Of a DNA stretch of 64,000 nt, positions 57,001-63,000 are shown in pieces. The DNA is from Escherichia coli (GTDB taxonomy: Bacteria; Pseudomonadota; Gammaproteobacteria; Enterobacterales; Enterobacteriaceae), in NCBI RefSeq assembly GCF_003018115.1, contig NZ_CP027458.1; one strand, given 5' to 3'. The stretch's first letter is position 1, and each line of letters begins with the position of its first letter. Position numbers: made by a program.

Positions 57001-60000
57001 ACTGAAGCCGGCTGCGGCCTTACGGCAGAATTTCGCCTCGCCCGTGAAAGCCCTGACATCCACACCATTCAGGGCGGCAACATCCTTACCAGCAGCGGCC
57101 AGTGCCGCCAGCTGTGATACTGCCTCACCAAAATCACTGCTTTTTCCGCTATGCGCCTTGTCGCATTCACCGTCAAGGCAGAAGACATCACCACCACAGA
57201 CCATCACTTTTCCGGACGTTCTGGACTCGCAGGAGTACGTGGCATACTCATGCAGACAAGCTCCCTCATCGGAATAAAACGCGCACTGACGTGAGGCCAG
57301 CGTACAGGCCGGATTATCGACATATTTCTGACAGGTGCCGTTATCTGCGGACTGTGTGACATATTTATCCCGGTATGCCCAGCACGCCTGTGTGATGCTC
57401 CAGGTTTTACCTTCCATCACACCCGTTTTCGTACCACCCGGTTCTGAACACTCAGTGCCTTTCAGCACGCCATCCGCTTTATTAAACGGACAACTCTCCA
57501 CCCACTCCACCCGTGGAACCCATTCCTTATCACGGACCTTCATCCTGAGTTTCAGCGTAAAGGTGGAAGCACCACTGACAAGCGATTCATAGACCATCCT
57601 GTCACCATTCCCGTGCGGGAGGCAATTACCGTTTGCAGTACAGCCACTACCGGTCAGAACCTGCCCCTGTGTGACAGAAAACCCGGAGGGCACAGGTATG
57701 GTGAAAGTCCCGCTCTGTCCTGTAACCAGTTGCACATTAAAGGCTGTGTTCATAAAGTCGTAACGGGAGTTAAGGAAATATAGCCCTGCATGAGCCGACA
57801 GCGAGGCACTTTCCACTGTCCCGGCAACAGGTACGGTAACGCTGAACACCAGTTTCAGACCGTTCATACTGAACCGGAACTGTGAGTGCGGTATCGTCAC
57901 CTCACGATATTCATCCGTGTATTTCCAGTCTCCTGTGATCCTGGCTGTCCTGGAACAATATTCCTCCACCATCGTGTCACGTTCACAGGTATAGTTTGTG
58001 AATTCACTGCGGTTTATCTGCTGCGCACTGCACTGCTGTCCGGTATTTCCCACGATACTGTCAGCCCGGTTCACCACATCCCTGCCGGTCTGAATAAACG
58101 GCGCATCCGGTGACAGAATGTCTTTCGGCTTGTTCATGAATGACTCTGTGATGGTTTTGCCGGTTTCACTGGTTGCCCATTGTGTGGTGCCGTTATTTTT
58201 CAGACCGCCATCCCCGCCGGCAGTCACCCCACCGTAATACCGCGTCTCATCCGGGTTCGCGTTATACCCGGGGATACTCTCCTGCGGATTAAAACTCTGA
58301 ATACTGCCAATACCCTGCCCCTGGATCTGACGGGCAAAATCGGAACCTGCCCGGTAATCACTGTTGCTGTCGGCAAATACAGAAAAGCTCAGGAAAAAAA
58401 CAATTGCACAAAGATTGCACGGTTTTCCAGAGTCATTAAAATTCAGAGACCGGAAAAAGGTATTTATCTTTTCTTTCATAATCTGAACCAAATGGAGAAT
58501 GAAGTGATGTCATCTCAACTTCAGAACTGTGTTGATTGTGGTAAAGCATTAAGTCGAACAGCCACAACATGCGGGAATTGCAGCTCAACGGCCCCTTTTG
58601 GAAAAAAACGCCGCAACGATCGCTTGCATAAATGGTTTGCAGGGCTGTTTATTACAGCTACTATTATTGCTGGCGGGCTATGGTACATGGGACTTCTTGA
58701 TGTACCGGGATTATTACTCAGATAACGACTTCAGTAACGATATCAGTGTCCTAAAATCAGCACATAACGAGTGACGACAGTACCGGTTATACCAGTAATA
58801 AGGGGCTTCGGGCTGAAGCCTGAAACAGAGCTGAAACTCGCTGTTAAAAGCCCCCTTCACCGACCATCCCCATGCCAGACGTGGTATTGCTGATTCAGCA
58901 TCCTGCCGCAGTCGCCGTTCAAGAAGGGCGGCCATTTTTACCGGACAGACAAAGGCAATGTAAGGCGGCAGCTTTGTAACAGGGAAACCATGTCCCTGAC
59001 AGGAGGCATATGTACGGAATCCGTGAACGTTCATCGCAGCCACCAGTGCACGGATGTCCGGGTCAATCCGGTAATACCCGGCAGGTAAACTCATTGCGGC
59101 TTATCCCCGGTGCCGTCCAGCAGTCCCTGAGCCACCTGCCGGCAGTCTCCCGTGGCAGCCACTTTTTCCAGCGCCTGCCTGACGCGCAGATTTCCCCGGA
59201 TGATGTCGTGCCCCTGACTGCAGAACACCACCAGGGCCGGCACGCTGCGGATGCCGTACTGTGAAAACAACGTCGGGTCGATCTGAACACCATCGGTCGC
59301 GCCATCTTTTACCAGAGACAACACGGCTTCAGCGGTAGTCTTCAGGTCATTGTTCACCATGCCCCGCAGTGTGGCCGGAATACCGTAGTGCCGGGTTTCT
59401 CCCAGCATCCGTTTCAGTCCCTCTTCGGGAATGGAGAACGATACAAAATACACGGCCCCCTGCTGTGGTTTGTCTTTCTGAGCAGCCTGCTGTTTACGGA
59501 CCAGTTCATCGAGAAACTGGTTATCGGCATGCAGAAGGGGATTCGCCCTGACCTGGTGTTCTGCCCATGCCTGCAGTTGTGTGTCCGGCTTTTCACGCAA
59601 CTGCTGACTCAGTGTTTCCTGCTGCTTCAGGAACTGGCGATTTTCGGGCGTATTCACATTTTCCGAAGCATGGGCAGAAAGAAACAATCCTGCTGTCAGG
59701 GCGAATAAAATGTATATTTTTTTGTTCATAGAATTCTCCTGCAAACAGACAGTAATTAATCGTCATAATGAGGCGCTCAATAGAGCGAGTCTGGAGATAG
59801 CTGACGCCATGTTAAACACAACGAAGATCGTTGATTAACTTCTTTCTCCATTTATCTTTTTTCTGAGACTGGCAGCAATTAGATAAACGATACCGGATAT
59901 TCACTCTGTTAAATCATTAATTCATTTCTGACCGATACACATAAAATGAGTCAGATATTACCCGTTATTCTCTTCTTCATTTTTGTTTAATCTCTTTCCC

Positions 60001-63000
60001 GGCAGAAACTCATCAGAGCAGAGATATTCCAAAAAAAACAGCCGCCCAGGTGCATAAAAAAGTTGTTCCCAGATATAGCCTGATAACGCTGAACCTGTCT
60101 GACACATCACTTCTCTGCCATTCACTGATAATGTCACTGATAACATTTCCAGGCATAAAATAAAACAACACCGTGAATAGCATCACCAGTGCAAAAGGAA
60201 ACAATTTTAATGCTTTGCCTGTCAAACGAATGAACACACAGGATATACTCATATAAATATGAATGTATTTACTGCTTAATTTATTTTCCATTTAAAATAT
60301 TCCTCTTTTTGTTTAAGTTACAGAAATACACAGTTACGTTTACGCCACATCAGGTAACCGAAGTTTTTCTTTGTGTTGGGCGGATTTTTTCCCGTCTCCC
60401 AGCGCATCACACTGCGTCCGAACGGATGGCACTGTCCGCTGTCCGGGTACATATTCACCATTTGATAACGCCAGCGCTCTTTGGGAAGTATGGGCGACGG
60501 ATATTCATAACAGACAGCCACATCCACGCCGATGCTGTTCATTATCATTCCCTGACGGTGGAGCTTAAACGCCATCCGTTCACTGACCAGCAGGGATGAC
60601 TGCAACGGACTGGATTCATTGCTCACCCAGCCATTAAACGGATACATACTGCCCTGCGAACCGGCACACCAGAACAGGATATCCAGCGGCTTGTTAAAGG
60701 CACTGGCAATGGCATCCACCGCACAGGCTCCCTGTGCTATCGGATTTGCAAAGATGACCGCTTCCGGGTTGAGAATGGTGGTCAGACTGCTGTCTGTCCA
60801 GGTAGGGTCAATTTCTGAGATGTACCCGATATCCATATCGCCGCCCATCAGACATCCTGCTGAGGTGATAATACTCAGCCAGTATGTCAGCGGGTATTTG
60901 TACCAGTGAACATGGTAAAATGCCCCGTTCACCTGCTTGTCGTCTTTTTTGGCCGTTCCCTGCCCGGTTTTCCCCAGCTCCGGGATTGTTATTCCAAGAT
61001 TTACCATACATCCCGGACTGCGGGTCACATCCGTCAGTGCCATCGGCTCCCAGTAACCAATAGCCAGCCCGATACGTTTAAATACAGGCGGTGGCGCAGG
61101 ACAGAACTGGATCGGCATTGACGGGTTTATTGTATCCGGCACCTTCCCCTGACTCACTTTTGTGCTGCCCAGCGACAGTGGAAAAATGCAGTTCCAGCAG
61201 ATATCCGTGATCGGGTTAACAAACCGCCCTTCACAGGCAGCGTCCGCTGACGCTGCGGGAACATGGCCAGTCAGCAGCAAAACCACACACAACCACATAC
61301 ACCGTTTCATTTCCCTCCCTCCCCGACCGGAATAAACTCCACCTTCAGGAAACGATCGCCACTGACAGCACTCACCCGTGCCGGCACCTGATCAATGCCG
61401 AGACGCTGGCAGATCACGCCGTTCTGATCAAAGTAAACACGACTGTCCAGAGCCTTCTGCATCTCCGGGATACTGCCCTGCACCAGGATAATTTTGCTCT
61501 CCAGTGTGGGAGGCGTCTGGCGCTTCATCCATTCAATCTGCTCAGGATCATCACCGTTGATGAAATACAGTGTCTGGTTAAAAGGCACATACTGCAGCGG
61601 GTTCATCACCTCCCCCTGGCGGGCGAAGATACGACCTTCGTTATCCCGGATATCCGCAGCCAGTCTGACAGATGGGTCAAACAGGCGGCTGCTGTATTTC
61701 TCCGTCCGACCGATACCGGGCACGGCAGGGGGCCGCAGGCTGTTGCGGATCACCCGCTCCTTAAACGCATCCATTTTCCGGCCCATCTCACCGGACTGCT
61801 CCAGTGCCGTCAGGCGCTGCATGATCACCGTCAGCATGTCCGGCTCCTTTACCGGCCACAAATCCCCCCAGGTGCCAAGATCGGCTGCGGACACACTCTG
61901 CCCCCATATCAGCAGGGCAATCAGCCCCCGGTATTTCATGGTTCTGCCCTCATTCGCCGGGCAATATCCTGCTGGATTTCACGGGTGATATCCGGTGCCC
62001 CCTGTACCACGGCTGGCGACACCAGAATGACAGCGTGGTGCTTCTGCTGCCACGTCTGCAGACTGGCCTCCAGTGCCGCGTTAAAACGGTCAGCCAGCGC
62101 CTTAGACTGCGCTTCTGACAGTTTTTTCTGGCTGGCACTGTCAAAAAACGCATCCACTGTCTGTTTCATGTTGAAGGCGACGGTTACCGGCGTGTTCAGT
62201 CTGACAATGGCGTAACTGACGGCTGCGTTCAGTAACACCATTGCCAGGCATCCCGGCACCGTCCACCACCAGTGGCTGCGTTGACGGGCTGTAACATCAG
62301 TCGTTTTTTGCGTTGTGGTCATGCAACACTCCTGTATTTCTCATGTTCTTCCAGCCAGGCCTCCAGCGAAGCCATCTCCGGGCCTGACTTCTTCCACGCC
62401 AGCTGCCACACCGCCTCATGAATGCTCAGGCCCTCCTGACGTTTCTGCTGCACAAACTCAAAATCCGGGCCGTCAGAGCTGTACATGGCGCGGCTTAACG
62501 GGTCCACAAACAGACGGTGCCAGGAGGAATGGTTTTCCACCTGCAGCAGGAAGGAACTGAACCACTGGTCTTTGGCCGCACCAAACTTGCCAATCATGTC
62601 GCGCTGCAGTGGCAGGAACTGGTCCGGGAATAACTGGTTATATTTCGCGAACTCCTTCGCACTCTGCTTGAGGATAATTTTGTAGGAGGAGTTACCCCAT
62701 GCGGCACGGGCCGCACTGGAGGCCTTGTCAGAGTCAAAGTCGACGATGTTCTGTGTGATGGTGATATAGGCACCGGTATGACGACGGGCGGTACGGTAAC
62801 CTTTCTCAATAAACTCACCGACCTTGTGATTTTTGAAGTCCAGCAGACGCCAGCCTTCATCAATAACGTTCAGTTTCTTGAGGTTACGCGGCGTGCGGTA
62901 CATCCGGTTCTCGATGTAGATAATCAGGGAGAACATCACCGCAACCAGCAGTGACGGTCGGTCTTCCAGTCCGCCCAGCTCCAGCACCACCATTCTGGCG

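Follow-up and report, generated by a model that had tools for sequence, protein, structure and literature searches.

The transfer operon of plasmid F (NC_002483) places traU and trbC 8 nt apart. Scattered among its essential pilus-assembly genes, F also encodes TrbD, TrbE, TrbA, TrbF, TraP and TraQ, small proteins, several of them membrane proteins, which are dispensable or nearly dispensable for transfer. At the traU-trbC junction, plasmids R100 and pEG356 encode a protein of 101 aa annotated as 'hypothetical protein' (WP_000224416.1), and plasmid pSLT encodes a protein of approximately 100 aa (WP_010999945.1). Plasmid pSBLT (LN794247) labels the ORF of the pSLT type 'conjugative transfer protein'. 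Plasmid pED208 carries the lineage-specific genes orfX1-4, and deletion of the clusters containing them left pilin accumulation unaffected (PMC10939261).

The stretch analysed here, referred to as the window, comprises 64,000 nt of the Escherichia coli contig NZ_CP027458.1 and carries a tra operon on the minus strand (Table 1). Identical DNA is found in five or more complete plasmids. The original prediction had described a direct succession of traU and trbC in F, an AT-rich spacer of about 570 bp between the two genes in the window and, within this spacer, an ORF for a two-helix membrane protein of 92 aa. All three statements hold. The spacer measures 588 bp up to the annotated ATG of trbC, or 573 bp with the coordinates of the original prediction, which started trbC at an alternative TTG at 59744. 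Its GC content is 35.9%, compared with 52% in traU, 55% in trbC and 48% in the whole window. The ORF, named ORF-A in the following, has its ATG 26 nt past the stop codon of traU and the sequence AGAGGA 9 nt upstream of this ATG. Its product contains two hydrophobic segments, located at approximately residues 27-51 and 77-92 by Kyte-Doolittle hydropathy. AlphaFold2, run on the family alignment, modelled helices at residues 7-45, 48-60 and 63-91 with a mean pLDDT of 77. The tra machinery around the spacer is standard.

Table 1 Features of the traU-trbC junction in the window, in the order of transcription of the tra operon
Feature	Position	Strand	Evidence or remark
traU	60318-61310	-	Pfam TraU 1.9e-106; RefSeq annotation in identical plasmid NZ_CP027581; upstream flank
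traU stop codon TAA	60320-60318	-	
Linker with Shine-Dalgarno AGAGGA (60306-60301) for ORF-A	60292-60317 (26 nt)	-	Read from sequence
ORF-A (WP_021573907.1), 92 aa	60013-60291	-	Truncated allele of 110-aa family; RefSeq-annotated
T8 homopolymer, coding strand (A8 on + strand)	60031-60038	-	+1 frameshift site
Former C-terminal coding region EYLCSDEFLPGKRLNKNEEENNG*, out of frame	59958-60029	-	Matches tail of 110-aa alleles
ORF-B 3' remnant ..LIAASLRKKINGERS*	59835-59884	-	Full ORF-B 57-59 aa, intact in relatives L003 and L004
3' remnant NEALNRASLEIADAMLNTTKIVD* of 79-aa opposite-strand ORF (WP_001066128.1)	59767-59838	+	Intact in L003
trbC ribosome-binding site GGAG	59739-59736	-	
trbC	59091-59729	-	Pfam TrbC_Ftype 1.9e-19; RefSeq ATG start; downstream flank

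ORF-A is not a chance ORF, in view of its RefSeq annotation, the occurrence of the exact protein on 321 public contigs (three SNP variants are present on a further 250, 175 and 85 contigs) and its match to the family profile at 3.8e-44 (hmmsearch, profile A2). It affiliates with an unnamed family of proteins of approximately 100-110 aa, which consist of a basic N-terminus, two hydrophobic helices, a conserved acidic and aromatic loop joining them, with the motif PE..SD.I..W...D (in an alternative form, P-E/D..S/T-D..I..W...D) and a short SDEF(L/M)P tail. Homologues of the family were detected by tblastn in approximately 2,025 PLSDB plasmids from Escherichia, Klebsiella, Salmonella and Shigella, and a protein search retrieved 32 relatives. 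A comparison of the junction across F-like plasmids, as proposed with the original prediction, located a homologue at the traU-trbC junction, 18-30 nt after traU, in all five examples inspected (R100, pEG356, pSLT, pSBLT and a contig designated L006). In R100, pEG356, pSLT and L006 the arrangement is that of the window, with the ORF placed after traU on the tra strand and provided with its own ribosome-binding site. About half of the F-like plasmids, including R100 and pSLT, carry the gene at this junction. A megablast count of 2,071 junctions, in which flanks up to 655 nt apart were joined, mixes junction types and was not used. The earlier designation of ORF-A as a small accessory protein thus named the right class, with the family found at the junction, but the protein is not plasmid-specific, considering the number of PLSDB plasmids with homologues. 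Distant relatives are located within the transfer clusters of an IncX1 plasmid (tblastn 1e-5, shared motif) and of a P-type system (profile matches), and the family is conserved as a protein down to 28% identity.

The family has no model in Pfam or NCBIfam: ORF-A, its 110-aa form, the homologues from R100, pSLT and IncX1 and the neighbouring small ORFs gave no match above the cut-offs of either database. PADLOC matched none of ten family members, and PHROGs yielded nothing above cut-offs, with one of the ten matching a 'membrane protein' entry weakly (E 0.05). Neither a sequence profile search of the PDB (best E 0.35) nor a Foldseek comparison of the AlphaFold2 model with the PDB (best E 2.8) gave a meaningful match; a two-helix hairpin contains little fold information. 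When 1.84 billion representative proteins were searched with a profile, only 48 matched, all of them similar small proteins, and none linked the family to a characterized one. No paralogue of ORF-A was detected by profile search elsewhere in the window or in the tra region of F. A type I toxin or holin was considered and set aside, as neither an antisense RNA signal nor a lysis partner was found and type I toxins are usually shorter than 100-110 aa.

ORF-A is a frameshift-shortened allele of this family and not an intact member. Intact alleles carry T7 where the window has T8, and the additional base shifts the frame, so that translation stops after 92 codons and the SDEFLP tail is lost; the reading frame of 100-110 aa through SD(E/K)F(L/M)P is not present in the window allele. 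The former tail, which is now out of frame, on its own scores 0.003 against the family profile. ORF-A is 90% identical over 78% of a 110-aa query (P0013), and the window can be aligned position by position with two relatives of 110 aa (L002 and L004), except at the T-run; the linker between traU and ORF-A is unchanged in both. The frameshift is real and not a sequencing error, given the numbers of contigs with the exact 92-aa protein and its variants. Alleles with T9 and T10 occur as well, and all listed alleles with an altered T-run (92, 97, 101 and 111 aa) have G48, F67 and S68. By comparison, E48 is present in 12 of the 12 intact T7 alleles of 110 aa examined (P0001, P0089-P0098 and L013) and I67/R68 in 11 of them, and P47 and E48 are nearly invariant across the family alignment. 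ORF-A retains both hydrophobic helices and the motif KLFPF..FYFxP(G)..SDxIxxW..RLYL, including W58, D62 and L72, with the loop residue E48 replaced by G. The shortened protein, which keeps both helices and the loop, may still work. Other alleles of the family are disrupted by different frameshifts, and a common unrelated C-terminal sequence in P0020-22 and P0034 is taken to be the end of an IS element. Two rare alleles of the same lineage as the window have the frame restored, one by an upstream -1 shift (P0003) and the other by an extension of the run to +3 (P0109/P0002), a hint that the tail is of importance and that more than simple drift acts on the gene.

The remaining 270 bp of the spacer consist of the 3' ends of two further small ORFs, both of which related plasmids carry in intact form. 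ORF-B lost its ribosome-binding site, start codon and first approximately 40 codons to a deletion of approximately 158 nt, with the joint between 59884 and 59885. The ORF on the opposite strand lacks its N-terminal approximately 56 codons in the window. In all, the spacer is quite probably a region of accessory genes in decay within an F-like tra operon, with the member of the ORF-A family as its main content. As judged from its sequence, the allele in the window has probably lost its function in whole or in part.

It is rather unlikely that the 92-aa product is instead a functional short isoform that keeps the helices and the conserved loop and lacks no more than the poorly conserved tail. 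In its favour, the helices and most of the motif remain, the allele is common (approximately 830 contigs over the four 92-aa variants) and the SDEF tail is absent from the pSLT homologue, too. The substitutions of the window allele argue otherwise: E48G affects a nearly invariant residue, F67 and S68 are confined to the lineage of the window, and nine non-synonymous but no synonymous differences separate the window from its nearest intact allele (L004). Furthermore, the T9 derivatives terminate in the third frame.

Within the ORF-A family, dN/dS ranges between 0.37 and 0.74 with no pairwise value above 1, compared with 0.05-0.10 for traU and 0.14-0.26 for trbC (except for the outlier pair R100-F, with 0.41 for trbC). 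These ratios point to a weak but real coding constraint on the family. Between the window, R100 and pSLT, the dS of ORF-A is 0.9-1.7 and that of traU 0.96-1.03, and for the pairs window-R100 and window-pSLT the dS of ORF-A approximates that of the flanks. The agreement with the dS of traU indicates that the gene is old at the traU-trbC site, and the original suggestion that the insert was acquired within the operon is doubtful for the same reason. On these sequence comparisons, the compact 8-nt junction of F more likely represents a derived, stripped-down state. Contig L006 and R100 are 99.5% identical in traU, yet the nucleotide identity of their ORF alleles is as low as 59%, pointing to allele replacement. 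This replacement beside a nearly identical traU, dN/dS values of 0.4-0.7 that lie several-fold above those of the neighbouring genes and fit a fast-evolving determinant, and the presence of the family in three types of T4SS would also be in line with a specificity determinant under diversifying selection (for exclusion, immunity or a pilus-coexpressed anti-phage function) rather than with an accessory of the machine. We consider such a role unlikely, since PADLOC gave no match, exclusion is already served by TraS and TraT in F-like plasmids, dN/dS exceeds 1 in no pair, and frequent inactivation argues for a low selective value.

The protein H-NS silences F-like tra operons, and DNA with 36% GC is of the type that H-NS binds. 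The last approximately 80 nt before trbC are also conserved in L003 and L004. Non-coding regulatory DNA, the second possibility named in the original prediction, would take the form of an internal promoter, an attenuator or terminator, an sRNA or an H-NS nucleation site, with the ORF being incidental. The searches lent it no support: the spacer contains no promoter-like site (3.4 expected) and no terminator-like site within 59730-60317, nothing in Rfam matches it at E<=1, and the RNA of its non-coding part folds no better than shuffled sequences (z -0.25). This possibility is very unlikely also because the ORF is conserved at the protein level, with homologues at identities as low as 28% and dN/dS under 1, and because it is tightly packed in R100 and pSLT, leaving no spare non-coding DNA.

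There is little chance that the family is a general component or modulator of conjugation across F-type, IncX (T-type) and P-type systems and that the T8 run makes its expression switchable or slippage-recoded; if this were true, the plasmid would tune a conjugation-linked envelope function. Natural T7, T8, T9 and T10 alleles exist on near-identical backgrounds, and runs of 8-9 T or A cause RNA-polymerase slippage in enterobacteria, but a phase-variation tract or transcriptional-slippage site through which the gene switches between, or co-produces, forms of 92, 101 and 110 aa is most improbable, as all altered-run variants fall into the single G48/F67/S68 lineage (which fits one ancestral slip followed by drift and not frequent reversible switching), no T7 revertant on this background is present among the listed members, and other groups of the family have no long run, with T5 in R100 and an in-frame T8 in L002. 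Of the properties of contingency genes, a length-polymorphic homopolymer in the coding region was found, whereas reversible switching with undamaged OFF alleles was not.

The preferred reading remains that of a decaying accessory-gene region. The ORF-A family, whose genes lie directly after traU in many F-like plasmids, would then comprise small inner-membrane proteins translated from the polycistronic tra mRNA via a Shine-Dalgarno site of their own. According to the positive-inside rule, the intact protein is predicted to form a hairpin whose two ends lie in the cytoplasm. Its putative role is to assist or modulate the conjugative type IV secretion apparatus, or else the mating envelope, without being essential; this is suggested by F, which manages without the gene, and by the frequency with which the gene has been lost, frameshifted or struck by an IS element. 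Our best guess for the function of ORF-A, drawn from gene context, is that of an inner-membrane accessory with which the transfer apparatus can dispense; the protein is probably inactive in the window.

ORF-A is annotated in RefSeq as a hypothetical protein, and the feature is real but ordinary. Its importance for the window itself is low, with the ORF present in RefSeq, identical DNA in other complete plasmids and no departure from the standard tra machinery. For curation, the 92-aa product is to be read as a truncated allele, and F as an unusual case without this gene. The family, present in approximately 2,000 sequenced plasmids including R100 and pSLT, is still without a name or a profile model. 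Full-text searches of the literature found no published test of the family, no experiment or publication on any of its members and nothing about an ORF located between traU and trbC.

Compared with the known systems, ORF-A resembles the small tra proteins of F in gene context without a sequence relationship. The family profile gave a best E of 2.4 against the six-frame ORFs of F between 72000 and 86000 (traP to 5' traG; heuristic filters off), and no match was obtained to TrbD, TrbE, TrbG, TrbA, TrbF, TrbJ, ArtA, TraR or TraQ, whose families are present in Pfam and NCBIfam. Similar to ORF-A, orfX1-4 of pED208 are uncharacterized and embedded in an F-type transfer operon; this likeness is one of context, and their positions are different (PMC10939261). 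The IncX1 homologue (WP_000623494.1, 105 aa), encoded inside the transfer region, shares the motif, the length and two or three hydrophobic segments with the family. It differs in being encoded on an MPF_T plasmid upstream of a thermonuclease (SNase) gene, in its identity of only 28% and in a more hydrophobic N-terminal segment. The pSLT ORF has the traU-trbC junction and the motif core in common with ORF-A and overlaps the start of trbC, but it is only 32% identical, has a GC content of 44% and ends in another C-terminus. The ORF of R100 and pEG356 agrees with ORF-A in position and strand, likewise follows traU with a Shine-Dalgarno site of its own, and shows the two-helix layout and the motif KLFPF..FYFxP[ED]..W..D..RLYL..SDEF[LM]P of the family, at 46% identity to the 110-aa form. 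In R100 the gene is intact and lies 8 nt from trbC with no extra spacer, whereas the allele in the window is frameshifted, tailless and altered by E48G, with 270 bp of ORF remnants downstream of it.

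An F-like tra operon runs along the minus strand of the window, as established by ORF coordinates, Pfam matches and the RefSeq annotation of the 100% identical plasmid NZ_CP027581. The AT-rich insert between traU and trbC, described in the original prediction as missing from F, was confirmed: the spacer measures 588 bp up to the annotated ATG of trbC (573 bp by the coordinates of that prediction) and has a GC content of 35.9% versus 52–55% in the flanking genes, and only 8 nt separate the two genes in plasmid F. The spacer contains ORF-A, a small membrane-protein gene of conserved position that is truncated in the window and is already known to RefSeq as a hypothetical protein. 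Its ATG is located 26 nt past the traU stop and 9 nt downstream of an AGAGGA motif, and it is predicted to be translated from the tra mRNA through its own Shine-Dalgarno site.

Features of the traU–trbC region in the window
Feature	Coordinates	Strand	Basis
traC	62319-63977	-	RefSeq annotation of NZ_CP027581
trbI	61936-62322	-	RefSeq annotation of NZ_CP027581
traW	61307-61939	-	RefSeq annotation of NZ_CP027581
traU	60318-61310	-	Pfam, RefSeq annotation of NZ_CP027581
ORF-A (92 aa)	60013-60291	-	RefSeq WP_021573907.1, hypothetical protein
ORF-B remnant, last 16 codons	59835-59884	-	comparison with L003/L004
79-aa ORF remnant, last 23 codons	59767-59838	+	comparison with L003
TrbC signal peptide	59670-59729	-	
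trbC	59091-59729	-	Pfam, RefSeq annotation of NZ_CP027581
126-aa ORF	58714-59094	-	RefSeq annotation of NZ_CP027581
72-aa ORF	58510-58725	+	
traN	56575-58491	-	Pfam, RefSeq annotation of NZ_CP027581

The exact ORF-A sequence is present on 321 public contigs. Its nearest relatives, on pRHB35-C09_3 (L004) and pE2855-5 (L002), have 110 aa, the most frequent length among the 32 relatives found by protein search. A tblastn search of PLSDB recovered homologues in 2,025 plasmids (1,998 at <60% identity; Escherichia 1,241, Klebsiella 396, Salmonella 270 and Shigella 94 records). Since approximately 4,350 records carry a traU end of the window's kind, the gene occurs in roughly half. Homologues directly follow traU, at 18–30 nt, in R100 and pEG356 (101 aa, WP_000224416.1), pSLT (~100 aa) and one Logan contig (L006, 102 aa). 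The family matched no Pfam, NCBIfam, PADLOC or PHROGs model and no PDB entry, the F tra region yielded no paralogue, and a literature search found no paper discussing the gene. In contig L006, a 172-aa ORF (4372-4890) follows the ORF-A homologue; in protein P0041 (259 aa) the two form a single continuous frame, a fusion that may point to a functional link or be another frameshift artefact.

The predicted two-helix membrane protein was upheld by hydropathy and AlphaFold2 (pLDDT 77), which concur in placing a short helix between two hydrophobic ones. The basic N-terminus (+5/-1) and acidic loop of the family suggest, by the positive-inside rule, that both ends are cytoplasmic. Residues K29, L30, P32, F43, Y44, W58 and L72 are invariant in the family alignment, F31, F33, P47, E48, D53 and D62 are nearly so, and three groups share the tail SD(E/K)F(L/M)P. 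The intact protein is probably an inner-membrane component that assists or modulates the transfer apparatus without being essential to it, with the conserved loop as its likely interaction surface; alternatively, it could act as a specificity or exclusion determinant.

Relatives also occur in other transfer systems. One of 105 aa, with the same motif, is encoded beside a thermonuclease gene in the transfer region of an IncX1 plasmid (tblastn 1e-5), and profile matches in a P-type cluster follow the coupling-protein gene and one for an S26 peptidase, beside another SNase gene. On the IncX1 sequence (L010, 1965-2767) and a metagenomic contig (L017, 420-1243) the SNase gene directly follows and overlaps the distant homologue; the two may be a conserved gene pair.

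The window carries T8 at 60031-60038, versus GCTG-T7-GGAA in L004 and L013. The frame is thereby moved to a 92-aa protein ending in ..AAVFFGISLL*, and the ancestral tail EYLCSDEFLPGKRLNKNEEENNG* is still readable in another frame (59958-60029), within a listed 62-aa ORF (59958-60146). The 92-aa product could be a functional short isoform; we favour an inactive or impaired allele. A sequencing artefact was excluded because there are four 92-aa variants, distinguished by SNPs, whose contigs number 321, 250, 175 and 85 and come from many sources. Another reading takes the T-run as a slippage or phase-variation switch. However, G48, F67 and S68 are common to all alleles of 92 aa (T8), 97 or 101 aa (T9) and 111 aa (T10 or equivalent), whereas intact T7 alleles (P0001, P0089-P0098, L013) have E48 in 12/12 examined and I67/R68 in 11/12. 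This points to a single ancestral slip followed by more run-length changes; the pattern does not resemble a switch that is often thrown back and forth. Once repaired in silico, the window allele shows nine non-synonymous and no synonymous substitutions relative to L004. Two rare alleles with restored frame (P0003; P0109/P0002) hint weakly that the tail is of some use.

Pairwise dN/dS values of 0.37–0.74 in the ORF-A family, compared to 0.05–0.10 in traU and 0.14–0.26 in trbC (one outlier pair, R100–F, 0.41), indicate a coding but weakly constrained gene. The dS of the ORF is near that of traU against both R100 (1.0 and 0.96) and pSLT (1.6 and 1.03). ORF-A thus appears to have diverged in place along with the operon, which argues against a recent gain and makes the compact junction of F likely the derived state.

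Alleles have also been replaced at the junction: the traU genes of L006 and R100 are 99.5% identical, but their ORF alleles just 59%. The variable segment reaches into the TrbC signal peptide: that of the window, MNKKIYILFALTAGLFLSAH, is similar to the R100 and L006 versions, less closely so to the pSLT one, and is unrelated to MKLSMKSLAALLMMLNGAVM of F (L005, 6379-6440). The segment therefore extends from the traU stop to about codon 20 of trbC, and the F junction does not amount to mere excision of the ORF. Some plasmids (L004, 1342-2660; L011-L013, 1-1600) carry additional ORFs of 180 aa and 148 aa, hydrophobic at their C-termini, in the interval from traU to ORF-A. In these plasmids the 3' end of traU is repeated immediately ahead of ORF-A, a sign that cassettes may have been exchanged via recombination. 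Together, these features mark the junction as a recombination-prone accessory site.

The remaining spacer holds remnants of ORF-B, an ORF of 57–59 aa located downstream of ORF-A or in its stead in L003 and L004, and of a convergent 79-aa ORF on the opposite strand in L003. The ORF-B remnant borders a ~158-nt deletion (joint 59884|59885). The alternative of non-coding regulatory DNA found no support, with no promoter-like site (3.4 expected), terminator or Rfam match in the spacer and a folding z-score of -0.25.

The trbC–traN junction is another variable accessory site, given the 126-aa ORF in the window, which overlaps trbC by 4 nt and matched neither Pfam nor NCBIfam, and an HNH endonuclease gene in pSLT and L006. 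L006 also encodes a 123-aa homologue of the 126-aa ORF; F lacks the ORF, and its trbC and traN overlap. The AT-rich gap between the 126-aa ORF and traN contains a 72-aa ORF antisense to the tra operon, with a CxxC..CxxC zinc-ribbon-like N-terminus (Pfam E ~0.007, below cut-off) and a C-terminal hydrophobic helix, found by tblastn in 119 PLSDB plasmids at 80–99% identity and mostly unannotated.

ORF-A in the window is an ordinary feature, the decayed copy of a widespread, uncharacterised tra-operon accessory gene. Its only value, a modest one, is that this common family still has no name and could readily be tested in R100. The IncFIIK plasmid pBIC1a lacks a homologue, as does F; in pSLT the homologue overlaps trbC, in R100 it abuts trbC, and in L006 the 172-aa ORF lies between the two.
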